Source: a virus (lineage: Duplodnaviria > Caudoviricetes). From it: a DNA stretch of 64,000 nucleotides. The stretch lies in the IMG/VR virus record IMGVR_UViG_3300038345_000144; one strand, written 5' to 3'. Every line of letters begins with the position of its first letter. Position 1 is the stretch's first letter. The translations under genes and the position numbers were made by a program. A model generated the notes under the pieces. It was not told the origin of the DNA, did no database searches, and saw only the letters and a program-made list of their open reading frames with translations. Positions 20,243 to 62,249 of the stretch are shown here, piece after piece.

Positions 20243-22480
20243 CTACTGTAATGCCTTCTTTTTCCGCTTATTCTCAATCTTGCATAATACCGAGTCTGCC
20301 CACCACCAAAAGAGTCTAACTATGCACACAATTAAAAGCAACCCCAAAATCGCCCCAAGAAATTGTATAAACAACACGAATATCACATAAAAGACAGGCA
20401 TATTCCACGCTACACTTAAATCTGTTACCCAGTCGCCTAACAAAACACAAATAACATAGAGACTGCCAATGAAACTGGCTAATGCTCCAACGACCCCTAA
20501 CATAAGAGCCAGCATTATGCCAAACTGTTTCAATGGTCTTTTGAGTTCCAATTTTTTATTCATTATCACGATACCTCCTCTATGGTTTGAAACTGATAAT
20601 GACACCACAGGTTTTTTAATTCATCATAAGTAAAGGTGATAGTCATATCAGACGGCTCTTTGTTAGCCTCAAGTACCTTCTCAAAGAGTTTTTGCTTAAT
20701 AGTAATATTGGTTGGTTTTTCAGGCTTACTATCTTTCGTGTCTGATGTAGGCGGGTAAGAATGAACCGTAAGCCAATATTCAATAGGACTATCCAGTGTT
20801 ATCTCATACTTCTCCCACGGCTCCTCTTTACCATCATTTATGCCTCCACAAAAGTAATACTTATCATCTTCTTTGATAATATAAGCACACCAACCACCAT
20901 AGACAATATAAAAAGTAGTACCAAGACCCATATAGTTGATTACCTCTCTTGCGGTCTTGCAATATATACCGTGTCTTGTCTCTACTTCCGACATTAAAAA
21001 CTTATCTGACATCATAAATATTAACCCTTTGTAGCCAAGTAAATTGTTTTATTCTCATCATCAATAGTACAATGATACTGACTAAACATTATCTTATCAT
21101 ACTCAACTGGCTCACTATTTAAGTAAATGTCATAGGTTTTACGCTCTTCCAAGCGTTCTTTGTTGGTTTCTTGCATTTGACTCATTTGCGTCTCATAAGT
21201 TTGTTTAGATGTTTCCCAATCAACCATATTTGTAGTAGCAACAAAACAATTTACCACAAACAAAATAGCCCAAAGCCAGCAACTACCACCTCTTTCAAAT
21301 AAAGAAGCCCCTGTCAAGACCAGACATAAAAACATCAATACTCCTGCAAAGATGCCTATAAGTAAAGCAAGTCTATCAGGCTTGGTTACAGTTTCACTCA
21401 AATAGTTCAATAAAAATTCTTCGTTAGACATTTTGTACTCCTTTTATAACATCATATATTTTTGAAATCATTAGCAGGCTACAAAGAAGCACTACTGATG
21501 CCTGTATTATACCAATCAAAATTTCACCGTTGGCAAACCAAAGTGTCGCTGAAATGGTAAAACAGATAATAGTTATCAATTTCAAAATAGCATCGGCAAT
21601 AGTAAACTGCCTCCAATTCACATAGCCCTTCTTTTTATCTTTCTTCATTAGTAATTAACTGCCTCCTGTCGTGTTATAGCGTTCATACACGCCAACCTTT
21701 CTCCATTTCTTTGTTAATTTCTACCCTTAAATCCTCTATAAACTGATTAAGGTTATTATAATAAGTGCAGGTTTTAGACATATTCAAAGTATGCTTTAGT
21801 CCGTCGTCCATCCCCAGTACAATCCTATTAGGTTCATTATCAGGCATCATTACCTTAACTAATTTTTCAGGATTGATATATAAATTAAATTCAGGTATTT
21901 TAACTAACATTTATATAACCCAACCTTTGCTCATTTCTTCACTAATGCTTTTGCGTAAATCCTCTACGAACAAATCCAGATTGTCATAATACTTACTTTC
22001 CTTTGATAAGTTTACATTACTCACCGTATCGTTATCAAAGTGAATTTCAATCTTATTGGGCGTGTCATCGTCTTTTCTTATTTTTACAATTTTTTCAGGA
22101 TTTACATATAAATCACAAGAGGCAACTTTAACTAACATTTATACTGCCTCCATTTCTTCTGTTAACTTCAACATCTTATCCTTATAATAGTCCACAATGA
22201 TTTTCCAAAGGTCCTCATCCATTGGTATATCAATACTATGTGCCAAATGGTAATTAGGCATTATATCCCAAGATTTGCTTTCCCTTCTATATCGAAGAGA
22301 ATGGAAAAAGCGAAGAAAAATAGAGTTAGTGCTATGCCCCTGTCTTTCAATTTCCTTTTTAACACGCTCGTCCTCGCTATGCTTTCTATCAGCACCATAT
22401 TGAAGGTCTTTAATAAGTTCTGCGTACTTATCACGCTCACTCTTTAATGCGGTGTACTTCTCATACTGTTCCGAAGTCAT
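20243..22480 (-). CDS. Seven small hypothetical or membrane proteins, including tandem paralogs 21683-21910 and 21911-22138
   Basis: Consecutive ORFs; the paralog pair shares MLVK, YxNPEK, YYxNL..F.EDLR and EM.KGW. Confidence 0.7.
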
Positions 22481-22604: not shown

Positions 22605-22611
22605 CGGTCTC

Positions 22612-22770
22612 AAACGCCCTCCGAACTCGGAGAAATGAAAACTAAATAGTTTCCGTTGGCGAGAAGATAGAGAAACCCCCATAAAGAGAAACCCCCATAA
22701 ATGAGGAAAACAGGTTCAGCAACCCTTACAGATTGAGTCTGTATGAAATACCCCCTGTTATGTAGGGAAC
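22612..22770 (-). CRISPR. Orphan CRISPR-like mini-array A: 3 degenerate type I-E-like repeats, 2 spacers of about 33 nt
   Basis: Minus-strand repeats GTTCCCTACATAACAGGGGGTATTTC (22745-22770), GTTTTCCTCATTTATGGGGGTTTCTC (22686-22711) and ATTTCTCCGAGTTCGGAGGGCGTTT (22612-22636). Spacers 22712-22744 and 22637-22669, with a 16-nt duplicated half repeat at 22670-22685. Confidence 0.7.
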
Positions 22771-23010
22771 TTACCAATAAAGATTATAACAATCCTTATA
22801 ATCACAATCTGGGTCAGAAGAGTAAACTACCATAACCTCATACCCAAGTCGTTTTAACTCTTTTTTAGTAGCCTCACTTCTGATAGTGATTTTCTGTACG
22901 GTATTTTCACCTCTTGCGATAGCCCGCTTAATTGCACCTTCGACACATTCTATTTCGCTTTGAGCCTTTGTCAATTCAGTCATTTCCTTTGCAGTTTTAG
23001 CGTCAATCAT
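22771..23010 (-). CDS. Small phage protein, paralog of 2210-2446
   Basis: MIxAKxAxE...EL..LGY.V...Y.(I/L)YW pattern in both. Confidence 0.7.
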   Translation of the reverse strand: MIDAKTAKEMTELTKAQSEIECVEGAIKRAIARGENTVQKITIRSEATKKELKRLGYEVMVVYSSDPDCDYKDCYNLYW

Positions 23011-25133: not shown

Positions 25134-26024
25134 TCAACACTGATGCGACTTCACCTCTTCGAGAGTTAAGATGTCCTTCTTACCGCATTTTTTACACCTG
25201 CAATAGAAGTTTCCGACATCTTTATATACATACGCTAAATTATCAATTTCTATGCCGTTTAAGGTAATGGGGAATGGGTGTGTAGTACCACCACGCAAAA
25301 ACGACCTATAAGAAGAGCATTTGACCGTTACCCCGTCCTCAAACTTTACTATAAAGTTCTTGGAGTTGATATAATTACTGATTTCTGCGGTCATACCATA
25401 CTTGGTCATTACTTTCTCACCCAGTCGGTATGATGCGGGCTGACCATTGTTATTTGGAGTTTTGTGTTTAGGGTGTCCTATCTTACCTCTCTTAAAGTTA
25501 GTGTAAGATTTGTGATAAACCTCCACGCCATCTTCAAATCTGATGTCAATATCCTGCCTGCCTCTATAAGCAATAACCGTCATCATAAGACCACACTTGG
25601 CTCTACTCTGCTCGTTCAGTCTTTCCTGCTTACGATGTTCAATAGTAGCCGTACTGCTACGCTTAAATCTATCGTCAGGGTGCTGTGTGTTGCCTAAAAG
25701 AAAACTTGCATACTTGGTCTTTATTTCTACCCCGTCCTCAAACCTGACCGTCATATCATCGGCATTATTGTATTCAATGATAGTCATAGTGTGACCGAGA
25801 TTATTCTTCTTGGTCTCTCCAACTCTATATTTATAGGCTCTTGAGTAGTTAGGGTTCTTAATGTAGCCCTTCAAATAGTGAGTATATCTCTGTTTATAGA
25901 CTATCGTACCGTCCTCAAACTGAATAGTAACATCGTCGATGTTCTTATAGTCAATTATGGTCATCATCTGTCCGTTAGATGCCCGCATTGTCTCCCCAAT
26001 GCGAAGGTCTCTATAATTTAACAT
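25134..26024 (-). CDS. Tandem-repeat protein 3 (4 repeats of about 52 aa plus C-terminal CxCxxC zinc-binding domain)
   Basis: Repeat RIGE......G.MMTII.Y....D..VxFEDG......Y..F.KG.I.HP; C-terminal GNFYCRCKKCG...H.C. Confidence 0.85.
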   Translation of the reverse strand: MLNYRDLRIGETMRASNGQMMTIIDYKNIDDVTIQFEDGTIVYKQRYTHYLKGYIKNPNYSRAYKYRVGETKKNNLGHTMTIIEYNNADDMTVRFEDGVEIKTKYASFLLGNTQHPDDRFKRSSTATIEHRKQERLNEQSRAKCGLMMTVIAYRGRQDIDIRFEDGVEVYHKSYTNFKRGKIGHPKHKTPNNNGQPASYRLGEKVMTKYGMTAEISNYINSKNFIVKFEDGVTVKCSSYRSFLRGGTTHPFPITLNGIEIDNLAYVYKDVGNFYCRCKKCGKKDILTLEEVKSHQC

Positions 26025-27070
26025 TTATGGTTTCTCACTTCTTCCAAATCCATAATGTCGGACATACCACACTTTGAGCAAGTACAATAGAAGTTACCAG
26101 TATTGTTGTAAACATAAGCCAGTTTCTTCATTGTAACATCGCCAATAGTATAAGGTAACAGACTTCTGGCACAATAGCCTCGTCTGAAGCCTGAAATGGC
26201 GATATGCTTAACAATTCTACCGTCCTCTAACTGAACATCAAGATTACGAGCACCGTGATAGTCAATAATCTTCATTTTAAGACCGTAGTTAGTCATAACT
26301 TCCTTGCCTATATTTCTCTTCTGTGCCTCTACGGTTCTTACAGAGAGATTAGGGTTACGGATATTGCCTGTTACAAAGTTACTGTACTGGCGATTAGGAA
26401 CAATAGTACCGTCTTCAAACTGGACATCCAAATCAATATTGGAGCCATATCTGATAATAGTCATCATCTGACCATTAGTAGCAAGATGGGTTTCTCCTAC
26501 TTTAGTTTCCGCATTTTTAGCCGTCAAAGACTTCTGCCAGTAATGAGAATGATTAGTAGGGTGTAAAATTTCACCACGCCTAAACGCTCCATATTGCTTA
26601 TTCTTAATGATTTCTCCATCTTCAAACTGAATATCAACATCACTGGCATTATGATACCTGATGATTGTCATTAGTAAACCACAATTTGACCTACTGGTTT
26701 CCCCAATCTTTGAATTTATAGGAACATCAATAGTGCCTACCTGAAAGTCTTTGTATGTCTGATTGTTGGCAATCTCTCCACTTTCAAATAGGACATCTAT
26801 ATCGTTGGGGTTTCTATAATCAAGGATAACCATTTTGGGACCGTGTACCGACTGGTTAATTTCACCTATCTTCTCCCAGTTTGGATTATGCTCCGTGGGT
26901 CGTTGTATTTCGCCTTGCCTAAAATGTTGATAACGCTTATGCACGGCAATTACACCGTCATCAAATCTAACGGTTACATCTTTATTATTACGATAAGCAA
27001 TCAAGGTCATCATCTGACCTGTTACTTTATGCTTATACTGTTCGCCTATCTTCGTAAATCCGACAGACAT
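26018..27070 (-). CDS. Tandem-repeat protein 2 (5 repeats plus C-terminal CxCxxC domain)
   Basis: Same repeat five times; GNFYCTCSKCG...H.C. Confidence 0.85.
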   Translation of the reverse strand: MSVGFTKIGEQYKHKVTGQMMTLIAYRNNKDVTVRFDDGVIAVHKRYQHFRQGEIQRPTEHNPNWEKIGEINQSVHGPKMVILDYRNPNDIDVLFESGEIANNQTYKDFQVGTIDVPINSKIGETSRSNCGLLMTIIRYHNASDVDIQFEDGEIIKNKQYGAFRRGEILHPTNHSHYWQKSLTAKNAETKVGETHLATNGQMMTIIRYGSNIDLDVQFEDGTIVPNRQYSNFVTGNIRNPNLSVRTVEAQKRNIGKEVMTNYGLKMKIIDYHGARNLDVQLEDGRIVKHIAISGFRRGYCARSLLPYTIGDVTMKKLAYVYNNTGNFYCTCSKCGMSDIMDLEEVRNHKC

Positions 27071-27924
27071 ATATGCTCCTTAATCTCCTTTAGGCTCATT
27101 ACATCAGACATTCCGCACTTACTACACTTACAAAAGTAATTGCCTTCATCCTTAAAGGTATATGCAGGCTTCTTCATTACTATATTTCCTATTTTATAAG
27201 GAAACGGGTGCTTAATAAGTCCCTTACGGATTGCGTCAAACCTGTTATGTTCTGATATGTAGCCGTCCTCGAACTGAACGGTCATATTATCGTATTTATC
27301 ACTTGCGATAATGGTCATCATCATACCATTAGCCGACATATACTTCTCTCCAGTTCTATTCTTAATCTGACAGTAACTATGAGAGTATTGAGGGTGTCTT
27401 ATTTCGCCTTTAAGAAAGTTGAAGTAAGAACGATGCTGAACTACCACTCCGTCCTCGAACTTTACATCAATATCGGTAGAAGTCCTATACTCAATAATGG
27501 TCATTATTAAGCCATTAGAGGCTTTATGAGACTCTCCAAGTCGGCGGTTTTTGAAGTAGTTAGGGTTCTTCAATCTGCCCTTTTGAAAGTTCACATATTT
27601 TGTATGACGAACAATTGTTCCGTCTGCAAATTGCACATCAACATCTTCACAACCACGATAACCAATTATAGTAACCTGCTCACCATAATATGAGGTATTA
27701 GTTTCTCCGATACGCTTTGTATTAGGTATCTGGCTACGATTAGCCGTAGGTCTGTTAGGATGTCCGATTTTGCCCTTCTTAAAAGCACAGTAATACTTAT
27801 GCTTAACCACAACTCCATCTTCGAACTGAATGGTTAAGTCTTCCGAACTCTCACCACCAATAATAGTCATCATCATACCATTATTGGCTCTGTTCTTTTC
27901 GCCTAAATGAATTGCACTTACCAT
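27046..27924 (-). CDS. Tandem-repeat protein 1 (4 repeats plus C-terminal CxCxxC domain)
   Basis: Same repeat four times; GNYFCKCSKCG...H.C; start overlaps the helicase stop codon. Confidence 0.85.
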   Translation of the reverse strand: MVSAIHLGEKNRANNGMMMTIIGGESSEDLTIQFEDGVVVKHKYYCAFKKGKIGHPNRPTANRSQIPNTKRIGETNTSYYGEQVTIIGYRGCEDVDVQFADGTIVRHTKYVNFQKGRLKNPNYFKNRRLGESHKASNGLIMTIIEYRTSTDIDVKFEDGVVVQHRSYFNFLKGEIRHPQYSHSYCQIKNRTGEKYMSANGMMMTIIASDKYDNMTVQFEDGYISEHNRFDAIRKGLIKHPFPYKIGNIVMKKPAYTFKDEGNYFCKCSKCGMSDVMSLKEIKEHICLSDLRR

Positions 27925-29534
27925 TACTTAACACCCATTACATCAAGAACTGCCTGTACTGCTACATTCTTTGCACGACAGAACGGTGGAAGTGGTACGG
28001 CTTTTGGTGCTTTCTGTGCCAAGATATAATCTCTGGTCATAATACGGCAGTCACCACCCTTTTCAACCCAACGCTCCCACGCTCTACGACACGGGATAGC
28101 CTCGATTTCAGCCACCGCCTTACCAATAAACTCTCGGTAAGTAGCCTCGTTTCCAGTAGCGATAAGGTTGAGGTCATCATAGTAGAGTTGGTTAATGTTA
28201 TACAAACTACCACTCTTTGGTGTCCTCTTCTTGTGTTTTGCAATAATTTGCTTCAACTCGACAAGCCTATCAGTTTCTTCCTGTGTAAGTTTTACAGGAT
28301 TTCCTGCTTTATTCTTGGAGTTCTGCTTCTTTACTAAAGCCTTATATTCTTCGAGGATAGCGTCAGGCACACCACTTTCATCTTCCTTGTTGGAAACGAA
28401 CATAGTGTACTTTGACTTTCTATGCACATTATCTACTACATCGAATACAATCTTTGGTCTTGCGTCACCTGTGGATAATGCTCTACCCAACTGCTGTGCA
28501 TATACAGTATTTGAGTATGTTGAACGGTACATAATGATACCTGTTAGGTTGTCAACGTGATAACCCATATTAAGCATTTCACACGAATAAATAAGGTCGA
28601 TTGTTTTGTCCTTACTCTTCAATTTACAGAGTTTCTTGACATTCTTTGCATATTCAGTTGTTTCTGAAGATACGATAGTCTCCCTAATCTTGTGTTTAGG
28701 ATATGCCGTAGCAAACCAACGCCTTACCGCCCTCTGCTTATCCTTCATATGTGCAAAGTTAGAGAAGAAGACGATATACTTCTGGTAATTTGTCTTGATT
28801 TTAGCGGTCTTGAGAGCCATCTTGATATTGACATCCATACGGTTAAGGTTAGCCAACTCAATCATCTTACCATTGAGAAGTTCTCTGGCGTAGCCCTCAT
28901 CTTCCTCATCTACATCAACCTTGAGCATAATATCCTTCTTGATATTAGACACAACATTAGGGTCTGATGAGTCAAAATCACAATAGCAATAGTATGGCTT
29001 CTTAATGATACCATCCTGAATAGCATCGTGGAGAGTGTACTTTGATGTTGTAATATCGTTAAAGAACATCGCAGTAACATCAATCATATCCATTCTATCA
29101 GGGGTAGCAGAAGCACCAAGTAACTTTGCTTTCTTATTATCATTAAGGATAGAACGCAAACCGTCCATTGTCTCTGGAGCACCAATTCTGTGATACTCGT
29201 CGCAAATGATAAGGTCTGTTCCCTTAATTGCTTCCATATCCTTTTCTGTAAGTTGTGTAACCTTCTGATAGGTCATAAATGTTACATCAGGGATATAACT
29301 GTTCATCAACAGTTTGTAGTCCTTTCCATAATAGAAATTGAATACAGCCTGTTTTACAACATCTGTCGGATATAGGTATAAAATCTTTTTATAATGTCCA
29401 CTCTTGATAAACTTTGTAAGAATACCAGTCTTTCCAAAACCAGTAGGTCTTATGATGGCACACTTCTTCTTTTTGTCAAGAAGTTTCAATGCCTCTTCAT
29501 AAGTTTCCTTTCTTAAGCGGTCTATTTTCTTCAT
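27924..29534 (-). CDS. Superfamily 2 DExH helicase/ATPase (ResIII-like)
   Basis: PTGFGKT (I), DEYH (II), SATP (III), MLNMGYH (V), QQLGRAL (VI), VFDVVDN. Confidence 0.9.
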   Translation of the reverse strand: MKKIDRLRKETYEEALKLLDKKKKCAIIRPTGFGKTGILTKFIKSGHYKKILYLYPTDVVKQAVFNFYYGKDYKLLMNSYIPDVTFMTYQKVTQLTEKDMEAIKGTDLIICDEYHRIGAPETMDGLRSILNDNKKAKLLGASATPDRMDMIDVTAMFFNDITTSKYTLHDAIQDGIIKKPYYCYCDFDSSDPNVVSNIKKDIMLKVDVDEEDEGYARELLNGKMIELANLNRMDVNIKMALKTAKIKTNYQKYIVFFSNFAHMKDKQRAVRRWFATAYPKHKIRETIVSSETTEYAKNVKKLCKLKSKDKTIDLIYSCEMLNMGYHVDNLTGIIMYRSTYSNTVYAQQLGRALSTGDARPKIVFDVVDNVHRKSKYTMFVSNKEDESGVPDAILEEYKALVKKQNSKNKAGNPVKLTQEETDRLVELKQIIAKHKKRTPKSGSLYNINQLYYDDLNLIATGNEATYREFIGKAVAEIEAIPCRRAWERWVEKGGDCRIMTRDYILAQKAPKAVPLPPFCRAKNVAVQAVLDVMGVK

Positions 29535-29568: not shown

Positions 29569-29597
29569 ATTATATTATAATAGTCAGCATTTGTAAA
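29569..29597 (-). promoter_or_regulatory. Sigma-A type promoter for the helicase operon, abutting the last repeat of array B
   Basis: TTTACA-N17-TATAAT on - strand. Confidence 0.75.
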
Positions 29598-30022
29598 GGA
29601 ACCTCCGAAAGTCGGAGAGATTTACCGTCTGCGATTACCGAGCCGTCCCTCATTGAATAACCTCCGAACTCGGAGACAATAACACTTAAACTTATAAGAC
29701 TGTGTACCCCTTGAGAAAAACCTCCGAACTCGGAGAAGTATCGTTGGAACTGCATATCCGTGTGACGATTTGTGATAAACCCCCGTAAATACGAGGAAAA
29801 CTTGCAGGTTTAATTGTTGCCTCCTGCCCCATAGAATAACCCCCGTAAACGAGGAACCAAAAGGTAGCACTGCCCGTCAAGCTATACGAGTGAGAAACCT
29901 CCAATTTGGAGAAAAAGTTGCCTCTTGTTTATACTTATGCTAAACCTCCGACACGGAGAATACTGGTTAATCACTGATAGAAAATTTCCAGCATTGAAAA
30001 ACCTCCAAACCTGGAGAAACAC
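29596..30022 (-). CRISPR. Orphan CRISPR-like array B: 8 degenerate type I-E-like repeats, 7 spacers
   Basis: Repeats at 29996-30022, 29939-29963, 29892-29917, 29834-29858, 29774-29801, 29715-29740, 29655-29679 and 29596-29621. Period is 57-60 nt with one of 47. Example: GTTTTCCTCGTATTTACGGGGGTTTATC, resembling Firmicutes I-E repeats of the GTTTT(T/C)CCCGCACACGCGGGGGTGATCC kind. Unique spacers of about 32, 21, 33, 32, 33, 35 and 33 nt. Confidence 0.82.
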
Positions 30023-30034
30023 TTTATTTACTAT

Positions 30035-30064
30035 ATGATACCAAGTTGAATGATTTTTTGTAAA
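30035..30064 (-). promoter_or_regulatory. Promoter driving array B
   Basis: TTTACA-N18-TATCAT with extended -10 TG, ending about 12 nt upstream of the first repeat. Confidence 0.65.
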
Positions 30065-30069
30065 TAGCC

Positions 30070-30110
30070 AAAAAGAAAAACTCCCTCTAATCGAAATTAG
30101 AAGGAGTCTT
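30070..30110 (-). terminator. Terminator downstream of the topoisomerase operon
   Basis: ACTCC-CTCTAAT...ATTAGA-AGGAGT hairpin with U-tract on -. Confidence 0.75.
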
Positions 30111-30147
30111 TCCTAATGAAAGGTATAAAAATGAAGAAACGCTCGCT

Positions 30148-32259
30148 TTATTTTCCGTGTACTTCAGTAATTTGTTCACCCTTTTTGAGTTTGAGAACTA
30201 CCTTACCACTGGCACTTCTACCCGCCTGAACATTCTGACCAACAGCGTCAATAGTGACAGTTCTCTGGTTAGTGGTAATCTCGATGTTCTCGTCCTCTTT
30301 GAGTAACTTAACAGCGATAACCTCGTCACCAGCAACCTTTAAGCCACATACCGTTGTACCGATAGCCTTACTAATCTTCAAGCAATTATCGACAGGCATC
30401 TTCTTACCAACACCAGTCTTGGTAACAAAGTAGATATAAGGCAAGTCAACATCTTCGGAATAGATAGCAATTACCTTTTCGTTCTTACCGATTTCAGGTC
30501 TCAAATCAGAGATATTGTTACCCGAAGCGGCAGGCATTACTACATCAATAGTATTTGACTTAATCTTATACATATTACCGAGGTTAGTAACCATAGTTAC
30601 ATACTGGTTGCCCTCAACTGTAATAAACTTACTGTCTTCGTCAGTAGACCTAAACTTTGTAGGGTCAACTCTCTTGAGTGTCTGTGCTTCTGTAAGAACG
30701 ACCTTGAATATCTTTTTAGGCTTTGCGACCTTTGGCTTTGTAACAGCAACTCTAATATCCTGCATTTCAATATCTTCGAGTTGTGTTTTTCTTTCCCAGC
30801 CGTACTTATCAACAAGAGCATTAAATTGCTTAACGAATAACTTTGTACGAGCCTTTTCGTCGTTAATCAACTTCTCGTCTTCAGCCTTCTGCTTCTCCAA
30901 AGAGTCCTTTTCGTCATTCAACTTCTGCTTTTCGAGGTTAGCAAGTTTACCGAGTTGTGTAGTTACGATAGCCTCTGCCTGTACTTCTGTGAAGTGGAGA
31001 GCCTTACCGTTCTTACCCTTAAAGGCTTTCTTAACGATTGCCTGCTTTGCATCTTCGGAAGACTTGGAGGATTTGATTGTCTTGATAATCTCGTCAATTA
31101 CATCTAAAGCGGAAAGCAAACCATAGAGGACTTCCAATCTGTGATTAACTTTATCAAGGTCATATTGAGCCTCTTTAACAATAATCTCCAAGTTCTTTCT
31201 TACAAAATATTCGATATACTTCGGAAGTGTGATAGTTTCTGGCTGACCACTCTCACCGATAGCAATATGAAGGTCGGTAATGTTGATTTGAAGAGGTGTT
31301 TTTCTATAAAGAAGTTCTCTTACATATTCAGCAGTACCCTCTTGACACATAATTTCAATCAAGAAGCCGTTTCTATCACAACGGTCTGCCATATCAACAA
31401 TCGGCACATTATCCGTAGTCTCTACGAGTTTCTTAACCTTCTCTCGATAATCTTTAGGGAAGTAGCCGTAAGGGAGTGAATAAATCTTGATAGTGTCACC
31501 TTCAATTTCGGTTTCACCTCTTAATCTGATTGTACCCTTACCAGTCTCATAAATACTGGCTAACTCTGACTTGTTGATGATGATACCACCCGTAGGGAAG
31601 TCAGGGAAAACCTTTGTGCAATCAACCTTACCAGTCTTGATAAAGTTCAAAATCTGGTCTCTTATCTCGAAAAGGTTAGAACTTGACCAAGTAGCCTTGA
31701 TACCATAACCCATTCCTAACTCATTTGTCATAAAGAGTAATGGAAGTTTAGCAACCCAATCCTGCAAGATAGGTTCAGGACACTCCTCGGAATAGTTCTT
31801 ACCCATATGCAAGATGTTTGTGTTATAGAACAACGCATCCTCAAGCACTTCTGCCATTCTGATTTCTGTATATCTCTGATTTGATACTTCAGGACCACCA
31901 ATCAAGGAGCCGTAACCACCGTGACCGTCAAGAAGCGGTACAGGATATACGAAATCTTGAGCCATACGAGCCATAACACCATATGCTCCTGCGTGAGGGT
32001 GGAACCTCATTACCTCACCCTCGACAGTTGCCGACTTGGTATAAGCCTTATTATGAAAGTGTCCGTTGTAGTACATAGCCCAAGCGACACGGGATTGAAC
32101 AGGCTTCTGACCATTAGATATATAGTTCATCTGACGGGATAAGTTAACCTCGTCACTATATTCGTGGAAGTCATCGTGAAGTTCCGTAACAATGTCTCTG
32201 TCAACAATAGGCTTTTCAATAATTTCTTTTTCTTCTGTAATTTTCTTTCTACGAGCCAT
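30148..32259 (-). CDS. gyrA: Type IIA topoisomerase subunit A (GyrA/ParC-like)
   Basis: GQKPVQSR, FHPH, catalytic RYTE, PDFPTGG, C-terminal pinwheel-like repeats; gyrase versus topo IV not resolved. Confidence 0.9.
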   Translation of the reverse strand: MARRKKITEEKEIIEKPIVDRDIVTELHDDFHEYSDEVNLSRQMNYISNGQKPVQSRVAWAMYYNGHFHNKAYTKSATVEGEVMRFHPHAGAYGVMARMAQDFVYPVPLLDGHGGYGSLIGGPEVSNQRYTEIRMAEVLEDALFYNTNILHMGKNYSEECPEPILQDWVAKLPLLFMTNELGMGYGIKATWSSSNLFEIRDQILNFIKTGKVDCTKVFPDFPTGGIIINKSELASIYETGKGTIRLRGETEIEGDTIKIYSLPYGYFPKDYREKVKKLVETTDNVPIVDMADRCDRNGFLIEIMCQEGTAEYVRELLYRKTPLQINITDLHIAIGESGQPETITLPKYIEYFVRKNLEIIVKEAQYDLDKVNHRLEVLYGLLSALDVIDEIIKTIKSSKSSEDAKQAIVKKAFKGKNGKALHFTEVQAEAIVTTQLGKLANLEKQKLNDEKDSLEKQKAEDEKLINDEKARTKLFVKQFNALVDKYGWERKTQLEDIEMQDIRVAVTKPKVAKPKKIFKVVLTEAQTLKRVDPTKFRSTDEDSKFITVEGNQYVTMVTNLGNMYKIKSNTIDVVMPAASGNNISDLRPEIGKNEKVIAIYSEDVDLPYIYFVTKTGVGKKMPVDNCLKISKAIGTTVCGLKVAGDEVIAVKLLKEDENIEITTNQRTVTIDAVGQNVQAGRSASGKVVLKLKKGEQITEVHGK

Positions 32260-50808: not shown

Positions 50809-50847
50809 AAAAAACTCCCCGTAAAATCAATTACGAGGAATTTTTTT
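50809..50847. terminator. Terminator closing array C (resembles a repeat-derived hairpin)
   Basis: AAAAAACTCCCCGTAAAATCAATTACGAGGAATTTTTTT: hairpin flanked by A- and T-tracts. Confidence 0.7.
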
Positions 50848-50864
50848 AATAATGTGGATTGCTA

Positions 50865-51076
50865 TTACAGCCCCCATAAATGAGGAAAGTTGAACGAGTT
50901 GTCAATGAACCCTTGTCAGCTTTGAACAACCTCCGATGCGGAGAACAGCCGTTTTACGCCAAGATTTGCTGAACAACCCCCGAAACGGGGAAACTTGTGC
51001 ATATATTACACAAGTTCTTTGTGGACTAAACCGCAGAGTTTGAGTCCTTTAGAACAACCCCCGAAACGGGGAAAAT
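50865..51076 (-). CRISPR. Orphan CRISPR-like mini-array C: 4 degenerate type I-E-like repeats, spacers of about 57, 22 and 33 nt
   Basis: Minus-strand repeats TTTCCCCGTTTCGGGGGTTGTTC (two copies, in 51052-51076 and 50971-50994), CTGTTCTCCGCATCGGAGGTTGTTC (50924-50948) and ACTTTCCTCATTTATGGGGGCTGTAA (50865-50890; core identical to a repeat in array A). Confidence 0.7.
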
Positions 51077-61154: not shown

Positions 61155-62249
61155 TTATTGAGGGCTGATAACATTCATATTATCGGGCTGGCTAATCTTG
61201 ATGATATACATATCAGGTGAGTCAATAGAATATTTTGCATCGCCTCTTGCAGTAATCTTAACACCACCAATAAGGTCAGCATCTTCGTCATAAATATCAC
61301 CACGACCAGTTACATCAGCCTCATTACGGGGCTTGAGGTAAACACCCTTCTTATTAACTTCAACTTTGGAGTCGTCAGCAATCGTAAGGTCAGACTGGTC
61401 AAGTCCATTCTCCGCACCAAGAATAGCAACTACCAAGTAACTGTTTACACCAAAGATAGACTCAATGTGTGCAGACTCGGTATTAACATAGTCCTGAAGT
61501 GACCTCTGGGCTTCCTCGGAGGAAAATCTTACCTTCTTACGGTCCTTGAGTTTCTCTTCAATCATATGTGCTAATTCAGGGCTTGGGATAACTAATTCGT
61601 GGTTAGGGTCACGGTTAGGATAGAGCAATCCCTTTGCCTTATCATTTGCAATTCTGAACTTATCTCCAAATACGGCAGGAACCTTAACGACAGGTACTCT
61701 AACCATAAACTTAACGGAGAAGTCACTGTTTGTAGCCATAAAGTCGAGAGTATCGCCTTCAAGCAGGTCGCTACTAACCATATAGTCCTCGTAGTTGAGT
61801 GGAGCAAGTCCCTCAAGTCCACAAAGAACTCTTGCATCTCTCAATGCCTGATAAGAACCAATGTTCTTGACATTGTTATACTTTCTACTGCAACAAGTAT
61901 AGTTTACCCAAGTTGCAAAGAAGAGGTCATTTGTAGGTGTACCCTGTAATGTTGGGGCATCGTTACCAGAAATCTCCTTCCAAGCATCGAAGAGTGTAAG
62001 GTGATTGATGATGTTATCTCTTTCAGCCTCTCCGATAGTCTCACGGAATATTGCAGAAACCAAGTCAGGTACAAGGTTAGGGTCACTTAACATTGATGTT
62101 AAGGCTTTTCCTGCATTTTCGGGGTGGTTCTGATAACCAGCCAATGCGTTATCATTGTTCTTCTCGCCAGACTCAAGTTTGGTCAAAGAAACCTCAACGC
62201 TAACAGGTTTTCCATTCATAATAACTGTTGTTTTGATTTTGTCAGCCAT
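61155..62249 (-). CDS. Hypothetical protein, distant paralog of 59130-60137
   Basis: 364 aa ORF sharing the motif blocks listed for 59130-60137. Confidence 0.7.
   Translation of the reverse strand: MADKIKTTVIMNGKPVSVEVSLTKLESGEKNNDNALAGYQNHPENAGKALTSMLSDPNLVPDLVSAIFRETIGEAERDNIINHLTLFDAWKEISGNDAPTLQGTPTNDLFFATWVNYTCCSRKYNNVKNIGSYQALRDARVLCGLEGLAPLNYEDYMVSSDLLEGDTLDFMATNSDFSVKFMVRVPVVKVPAVFGDKFRIANDKAKGLLYPNRDPNHELVIPSPELAHMIEEKLKDRKKVRFSSEEAQRSLQDYVNTESAHIESIFGVNSYLVVAILGAENGLDQSDLTIADDSKVEVNKKGVYLKPRNEADVTGRGDIYDEDADLIGGVKITARGDAKYSIDSPDMYIIKISQPDNMNVISPQ

Follow-up and report, generated by a model that had tools for sequence, protein, structure and literature searches.

Between a gyrA-like gene (30148-32259, upstream) and an SF2 helicase gene (27924-29534, downstream), the phage DNA analysed here, a stretch of 64,000 nt that we call the window, carries a row of eight short repeats that share a hairpin more than a sequence. 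This raises the question of what such a row, named array B below, is and in which sense its hairpins act. We conclude that array B is very probably a CRISPR array working for a divergent type I-E system of the phage itself. The type I-E-like identity rests on the anatomy of the array, on covariation within its stems, on the cas genes of the same genome, on a comparison of strains and on the link between arrays and cas operon in related phages. The phage is a very large rumen or gut phage.

Anatomy of array B and its transcription signals

The eight hairpin repeats of array B lie on the minus strand at 29592-30020, with the terminator of the gyrA-like gene on one side and the promoter of the helicase operon on the other. 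A sequence-only reading of the locus had placed the array between a topoisomerase terminator and a helicase promoter, and both elements were found. Along the minus strand, the features are as follows.

30064-30120, minus strand: intrinsic terminator of the gyrA-like gene, a 19-bp hairpin (-26.9 kcal/mol, z = -7.2) followed by a U-run; invariant in four strains
30035-30064, minus strand: array B promoter, sigma-70 type, TTTACA, 18 nt, TATCAT, with a TG extension; score 10/12
29992-30020, minus strand: repeat 1, stem UCUCCA/UGGAGG, 4-nt loop, U-rich flank of 8-10 nt; covariance model 36.9 bits, -6.4 kcal/mol
29963-29991 (boundaries +/-3 nt), minus strand: guide 1, in the window strain only; searches gave no target
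29935-29962, minus strand: repeat 2, 3-nt loop; folding and covariance model
29916-29934, minus strand: guide 2, short (~20-24 nt, in a 47-nt unit); kept in 5/5 strains
29888-29915, minus strand: repeat 3; folding and covariance model
29859-29887, minus strand: guide 3, in 5/5 strains with 0-3 substitutions
29830-29858, minus strand: repeat 4, stem UCCUCG/CGGGGG with two G.U pairs; -6.4 (minus) versus -2.4 (plus) kcal/mol
29801-29829, minus strand: guide 4, in the window strain and one other (L016) only
29770-29800, minus strand: repeat 5, stem as in repeat 4, 6-nt loop; -7.8 (minus) versus -3.8 (plus) kcal/mol
29740-29769, minus strand: guide 5, in 5/5 strains
29711-29739, minus strand: repeat 6; folding and covariance model
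29680-29710, minus strand: guide 6, in three strains with 3-5 substitutions
29651-29679, minus strand: repeat 7; folding and covariance model
29622-29650, minus strand: guide 7, in the window strain only
29592-29621, minus strand: repeat 8, terminal, 7-bp hairpin intact, 3' flank degenerate; covariance model 17.6 bits
29569-29597, minus strand: helicase operon promoter, near-consensus, TTTACA, 17 nt, TATAAT; score 11/12

The hairpins start at 30017, 29959, 29912, 29855, 29797, 29736, 29676 and 29618 of the minus strand, with stem-start spacings of 58, 47, 57, 58, 61, 60 and 58 nt. The gap from one hairpin to the next is 42-44 nt irrespective of loop length (3-6 nt), with a single exception of 32 nt. 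The count of eight repeats given by the sequence-only reading was therefore correct, but its period of 57-60 nt fails for one unit: units are 57-61 nt long except for one of 47 nt, which has a short guide. For comparison, the E. coli type I-E unit is 61 nt, and type I-E arrays combine repeats of 28-29 nt with spacers of 32-33 nt. In each repeat of array B a loop is closed by a 6-7 bp stem, whose 5' arm is rich in pyrimidines and whose 3' arm is rich in G, and a U-rich flank follows. In this 3' flank (~8 nt), a candidate 5' handle, the UU..UC positions are conserved, and the U-rich flank differs from the 5' handle of E. coli.

That nearly every repeat differs, as had been claimed, is true of the loops, of which there are five, and of the variable flanks, but not of the stems, which are of only three types; array B is thus not a series of near-identical direct repeats. 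A TRF tandem-repeat search of the window did not report it. Small open reading frames that run through the array (29570-29755, 29622-29870 and 29692-29904) were rejected as mechanical, an ATG following only one repeat. The same artefact as in these frames (29570-29904) was seen in another strain (L018, 2501-2662), where the gene caller had lengthened the helicase by 54 codons into the array, to 590 aa.

The promoter proposed for the array, TTTACA-N18-TATCAT, is indeed present at 30064-30035 of the minus strand. Its -10 box ends 14 nt ahead of the modelled repeat 1 and 17 nt ahead of the stem, rather than about 12 nt before the repeat as first described; since the predicted transcript start lies only ~8-11 nt from repeat 1, the near-leaderless arrangement holds. 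We compared the window with four near-identical strains (helicase cluster 98% identity; 1-2.6% DNA divergence; 97-99% identical). Both promoter hexamers are identical in the five strains, and the sole difference lies in the spacer of one of them. The 133-nt leader made up of terminator and promoter showed 0, 0, 0 and 1 differences in the four strains (one in 4 x 133 nt), whereas third codon positions differ by 2-7%. Because of this near-invariance, the array B promoter is under constraint, and it is more conserved than synonymous sites and than the guides. Conservation of the leader also supports the view that the promoter is dedicated to the array, whose transcription it would drive.

The array had further been described as a self-contained unit. 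It does have its own promoter, but no terminator was found between array B and the helicase promoter, and the -35 box of that promoter is part of the 3' flank of repeat 8; for these two reasons array B is not fully self-contained. After the helicase gene, three genes at 25134-27924 of the window (292, 350 and 296 aa) lie overlapping or end to end, an arrangement that suggests coupled translation, and matched no Pfam family except for a sub-threshold match to T4 gp30.7. A tRNA search of the window found none.

Strand-specific pairing and the cas operon

When folded as minus-strand RNA, 8/8 repeats of array B form the same 6-7 bp hairpin (-5.6 to -8.5 kcal/mol). On the plus strand six repeats lose only the closing pair, and repeats 4 and 5 drop to -2.4 and -3.8 kcal/mol; it is for these two alone that the strand asymmetry matters energetically. 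Of the 48 stem pairs, ten that are G.U in minus-strand RNA become C/A on the plus strand, with no case of the reverse, in agreement with the earlier claim that the CCTCG/CGGGG stems pair fully as minus-strand RNA only. Folding of the whole array was set aside as uninformative (z only -2, with repeats pairing with one another).

Compensatory changes had been proposed to keep the stems paired. In array B they are two-sided at pair 3 (U-A/C-G) and pair 6 (G-C/A-U); pair 4 is C-G in some repeats and U.G in others, and pair 1 is U.G throughout. For array B by itself the shuffle test did not reach significance (p ~0.16), a weak test because the array has only three stem types. We built a covariance model, R1, from ten tetraloop repeats. 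Its hits in the 64-kb window were confined to three intergenic clusters of the minus strand (22608-22710, 29592-30020 and 50861-51075), which correspond to array B and to two further arrays.

22608-22772, minus strand: array A, three repeats of the array B family; covariance model
50861-51075, minus strand: array C, four repeats of the array B family; covariance model

Arrays A, B and C together have six stem types, 36/36 cells pair, and the shuffle test gave p ~0.003. Among 40 distinct repeats from three phage lineages, in an alignment that was fitted to the covariance model and in which many repeats are related by descent, 240/240 stem cells pair, three pairs show two-sided changes, the closing U.G pair is invariant and 0/500 shuffles reached the observed covariation score. 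Taken together, these results support the proposal that the hairpin is selected as RNA in the transcribed, minus-strand sense: every stem cell pairs, with two-sided changes, and all wobbles fall on the minus strand; the array promoter, the flanking genes and the cas operon share this orientation; and a gene for a Cas6e-family RNA-hairpin endonuclease lies on the same contig as array B.

In array A, a 16-nt tandem duplication at 22669-22701 repeats the 3' half of a repeat (3' arm and flank) without the 5' arm and stretches one unit from ~58 to 74 nt. Spacing in array C (50809-51075) is irregular (81, 47 and 58 nt), and an apparent fifth repeat at 50809-50846 proved to be a 16-bp terminator-like hairpin with a U-run. 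Unlike array B, arrays A and C have no sigma-70-type promoter directly before them. Rfam, searched for array B at the gathering score and at E up to 10, returned neither CRISPR-DR nor another credible family.

An exact-protein look-up retrieved the Logan contig SRR1725612_2579 (185 kb), in which the array B region is identical to the window. On this contig the genes cse1, cse2, cas7e, cas5e, cas6e and cas3 are located at window-equivalent positions 75733-82732, on the strand of the arrays and ~46 kb from array B. All six exceed Pfam gathering scores. The HD, helicase and C-terminal domains of Cas3 are all present. Cas6e carries the glycine-rich loop and gave a match to the Cse3 chain of PDB 5u07. 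The 60-nt spacer from cas6e to cas3 is occupied by two hairpins that resemble the repeats. In three lineages, neither cas1 nor cas2 was found within 10 kb of the operon.

Cas7e falls in a clade (47-77% identity) whose members occur on contigs as long as 532 kb, and the nearest bacterial CasC is ~25% identical. Two phages of this clade (Cas7e 62% and 77% identical) have the same operon with no cas1 or cas2 beside it, and R1 detected in them arrays of ~60-nt period (58-62 nt) directly after cas3, in one phage also upstream of cse1. Because R1 arrays adjoin the operon there, the repeat family is physically tied to the cas genes in relatives; in the present phage the arrays are dispersed, away from the operon. 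In two lineages a gene for a cell-wall hydrolase (Hydrolase_2, SleB-like) follows cas3 (L014 12157-12909 and L023 11740-12516), a possible pointer to a Firmicutes host. Upstream of cse1, one of these loci has a gene (L014 20200-20303) for a radical-SAM-like protein with intein-splicing and LAGLIDADG matches.

Compared feature by feature with a type I-E array, array B has effector genes in the same genome, a unit of ~61 nt with one 47-nt exception, and a stem-loop of 6-7 bp with a flank of ~8 nt in 8/8 repeats. An adaptation leader, Cas1-Cas2 and spacer gain at the leader end were not seen, the leader being ~10 nt and the differences between strains fitting loss.

These features lead us to propose the following mechanism, of which the transcription, Cas6e cleavage, Cascade loading and interference of array B are inferred. 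Host RNA polymerase would start at the sigma-70-type promoter ~10 nt before repeat 1 and transcribe the minus strand, and each repeat would fold into a 6-7 bp hairpin with its invariant U.G closing pair. Phage Cas6e would bind each hairpin and cut at its 3' base, releasing seven crRNAs of 57, 47, 58, 60, 59, 60 and 59 nt, each with a U-rich 5' handle of ~8 nt, a guide of ~30-33 nt (~20-24 nt in one case) and the next hairpin as 3' handle. The crRNAs would be loaded into the phage Cascade (Cse1, Cse2, Cas7e, Cas5e and Cas6e), which would recruit Cas3 to matching DNA. With neither an adaptation leader nor a cas1 or cas2 next to the cas operon, the guides are inherited, drift roughly neutrally and are thinned out by recombination between repeats, which have diverged in sequence but kept the hairpin.

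Guide turnover among strains and the search for targets

The five strains carry 8 (window), 6, 5, 5 and 4 repeats. Guides 2, 3 and 5 are common to 5/5 strains, guides 1 and 7 occur in the window only, and one strain carries a guide that is absent from the window. Where units are missing, the junction is a chimeric repeat, with its hairpin taken from the repeat upstream and its flank from the repeat downstream, which indicates that units were lost by recombination between repeats. All five strains can be derived by differential loss from an ancestral array that had nine or more units. There was no sign of acquisition at the leader end in the strain comparison, and guide 1 is not a recent canonical acquisition, since repeats 1 and 2 are very different. 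A comparison of the array in related genomes had been suggested as a test of spacer turnover against conservation; it showed the stems kept throughout and the number of units varying (4-8), a pattern that fits loss of units.

Shared guides differ by 0.8-6% between strains, compared with 2-7% at third codon positions. This is close to the neutral rate, so the guides give no visible sign of purifying selection. Relatives of the helicase at 54-67% identity lack an array ahead of the gene. No DNA relatives of the array locus were found in GenBank phages, and no helicase relative was found in IMG/VR.

Searches for targets were carried out at several levels, and they identified a target for none of the guides. 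All guides, searched by blastn-short against the window and related loci, matched only the arrays themselves. In ~83 kb of DNA from the phage itself, a set that takes in the stretch ahead of cse1, guides compared with every sixth position ignored did not score above shuffled guides. Array B gave only matches of E 0.1 or worse in GenBank phages and no match in plasmids, and exact 20-25-mers of guides 1, 3, 4, 5 and 7 had no match in IMG/VR. Six-frame peptide matching against 14 loci, with guides as far as guide 2, yielded no score above shuffled controls. These searches were shallow with respect to the metagenomes in which this phage occurs, and the lack of matches is weak evidence.

Two candidate matches were rejected. 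A 20-mer of guide 3 had one match in GTDB genomes, in an Acidimicrobiaceae MAG, where the flanks mismatch and ~1 match is expected by chance. Guide 2 has a 15-nt match at 22115-22129 that covers its PAM-distal end only, with the seed mismatched, and is non-significant after multiple testing; the matched site takes in the opening codons of a gene for 75 aa (21911-22138), in antisense orientation relative to its mRNA, and the match is probably due to chance. In the array of a distant relative, the first guide (L021 14810-14841) matches window positions 61761-61792, within a 364-aa gene (61155-62249), at 23/32 nt. Its first three mismatches fall at third codon positions in the frame of this gene, and the match is non-significant after multiple testing; it hints that guides of the clade may derive from homologues of clade genes, phage against phage.

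Alternative readings and relation to known systems

Several other explanations of array B have to be weighed. One is a variant of the type I-E reading and does not exclude it: array B could be a regulatory, CRISPRi-type array, some or all of whose units, above all guide 2, direct Cascade to bind host or phage promoters or genes without cutting by Cas3. Guide 2 is only ~20-24 nt yet is kept in five strains, and two units of array C are about as short. Binding-only regulation of this kind is exerted by phage I-E Cracr arrays, in which the repeats are imperfect and the pseudo-spacers measure 21-24 nt (bioRxiv 10.1101/2024.10.29.618823), and spacers directed at host genes for transcription and translation have been described in huge phages (PMC7162821). 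However, Cas3 is intact, no partial or seed match exceeded shuffled controls in 83 kb of own DNA, and the single 15-nt match of guide 2 lies at the PAM-distal end. We therefore regard this explanation as rather unlikely for the array, and a regulatory role of the 47-nt unit as possible though unsupported by any target match. It is improbable that array B is a decaying relic, that is, a former CRISPR array eroded by drift and deletion. The near-neutral change of the guides, the failure to find targets and the range of 4-8 units among strains 97-99% identical would all fit such decay, but the hairpins are intact in every strain and lineage, with 240/240 stem cells paired, the promoter is conserved beyond synonymous sites, the cas operon is intact in three lineages and three guides are kept in five strains.

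The availability of a complete effector set also bears on the idea that array B is a decoy, which would mimic host I-E repeats in the manner of Racr or Cracr RNAs and soak up or reprogram host Cas6e or Cascade. Such arrays exist (bioRxiv 10.1101/2024.10.29.618823; PMC11656645), and array B resembles them in being phage-borne, in having no close cas genes, and in its imperfect repeats and one short guide. Yet this phage has its own Cas6e and Cascade, the repeat family adjoins those genes in relatives, and the nearest bacterial Cas7e is only ~25% identical, so that nothing points to a host system using this repeat; we consider a decoy very unlikely. Even less credence is due to a non-CRISPR origin of the hairpins as attenuators or terminators, origin iterons or REP-like elements. 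The array does sit in a replication module, between gyrA and the helicase gene, and four of its hairpins precede U-rich tracts and were flagged as terminator-like. This is opposed by the strand-specific wobble pairing, by gaps of constant length filled with unique sequence, by the presence of the same repeat family beside cas operons in relatives, and by the helicase relatives in which this position has no array.

Within the type I-E reading, the observations can be drawn together into a broader picture, which we put forward as speculation and think unlikely to be right as a whole. The scattered arrays would form a hard-wired, inherited guide program and not an immune memory. Their repeats would have been driven apart in sequence, the hairpin for Cas6e alone being kept, to limit recombination between them, which would matter because the genome cannot replace lost guides. 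Separate promoters would supply different guide sets at successive stages of infection, array B acting early from its host-type promoter before the replication helicase operon; short guides would only bind, as in CRISPRi, and full-length guides would destroy competitor or host DNA.

A phage CRISPR system without adaptation raises the question of where its guides come from and how they are kept, and array B provides a concrete case, in which guides are inherited across strains and lost unit by unit, and repeats have diverged with their stem pairs kept. The natural repeat variants resemble a mutational scan of Cas6e tolerance and should be useful for deriving the recognition rules of this deep-branching I-E clade, which occurs widely, on contigs as long as ~530 kb. 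Should competitor phages or host genes turn out to be the targets, the system would become a testable model of how huge phages use guide RNAs to fight rivals or to take over the host.

The canonical type I-E systems of E. coli K-12, Thermus thermophilus and Thermobifida fusca share with the phage the gene order cse1-cse2-cas7e-cas5e-cas6e, an HD-helicase Cas3, units of ~60 nt, a 6-bp hairpin whose 5' arm is rich in pyrimidines and whose 3' arm is rich in G, a flank of ~8 nt and the glycine-rich loop of Cas6e/Cse3. They differ in that the phage operon has no adjoining cas1 or cas2, cas3 is last and Cas7e is ~25% identical to CasC. The phage repeats, moreover, are non-identical, unlike those of arrays maintained by Cas1-Cas2, and have an invariant closing U.G pair; there is no adaptation leader, and several arrays are scattered, with array B 46 kb away. 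What is unusual here is the divergence of repeats with all stem pairs kept, the scattering of arrays tens of kb from the cas genes, the leaderless conserved promoter and the deep divergence within type I-E; a non-exhaustive literature search found no paper describing these features.

Huge-phage CRISPR-Cas systems that have no Cas1, Cas2 or Cas4 and carry compact arrays are established (PMC7162821; PMC11656645). Their arrays have a median of six repeats, and their spacers target competing phages and host genes (PMC7162821). The present system shares with them a phage of several hundred kb, the absence of acquisition genes near the effectors and compact arrays, and it differs in its deep-branching I-E clade, its divergent repeats that keep only the hairpin, its dispersed arrays and the conserved promoter that array B has of its own. 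With Cracr (bioRxiv 10.1101/2024.10.29.618823) and with RNA anti-CRISPRs or solitary repeat units (PMC11656645) it has in common phage-borne, multiplexed, imperfect repeats, and the 21-24-nt I-E pseudo-spacers of Cracr resemble guide 2. Those elements, however, use host Cas proteins and match host cas or toxin promoters, whereas the present phage has complete effector genes, mostly full-length guides and no promoter match found. CRISPR-associated transposons and type IV plasmid systems (PMC11656645) are likewise mobile, have no adaptation module and carry small inherited guide sets; they are linked to transposition or to competition between plasmids and either lack Cas3 or carry nucleases that are inactivated, whereas the Cas3 of this phage looks intact.
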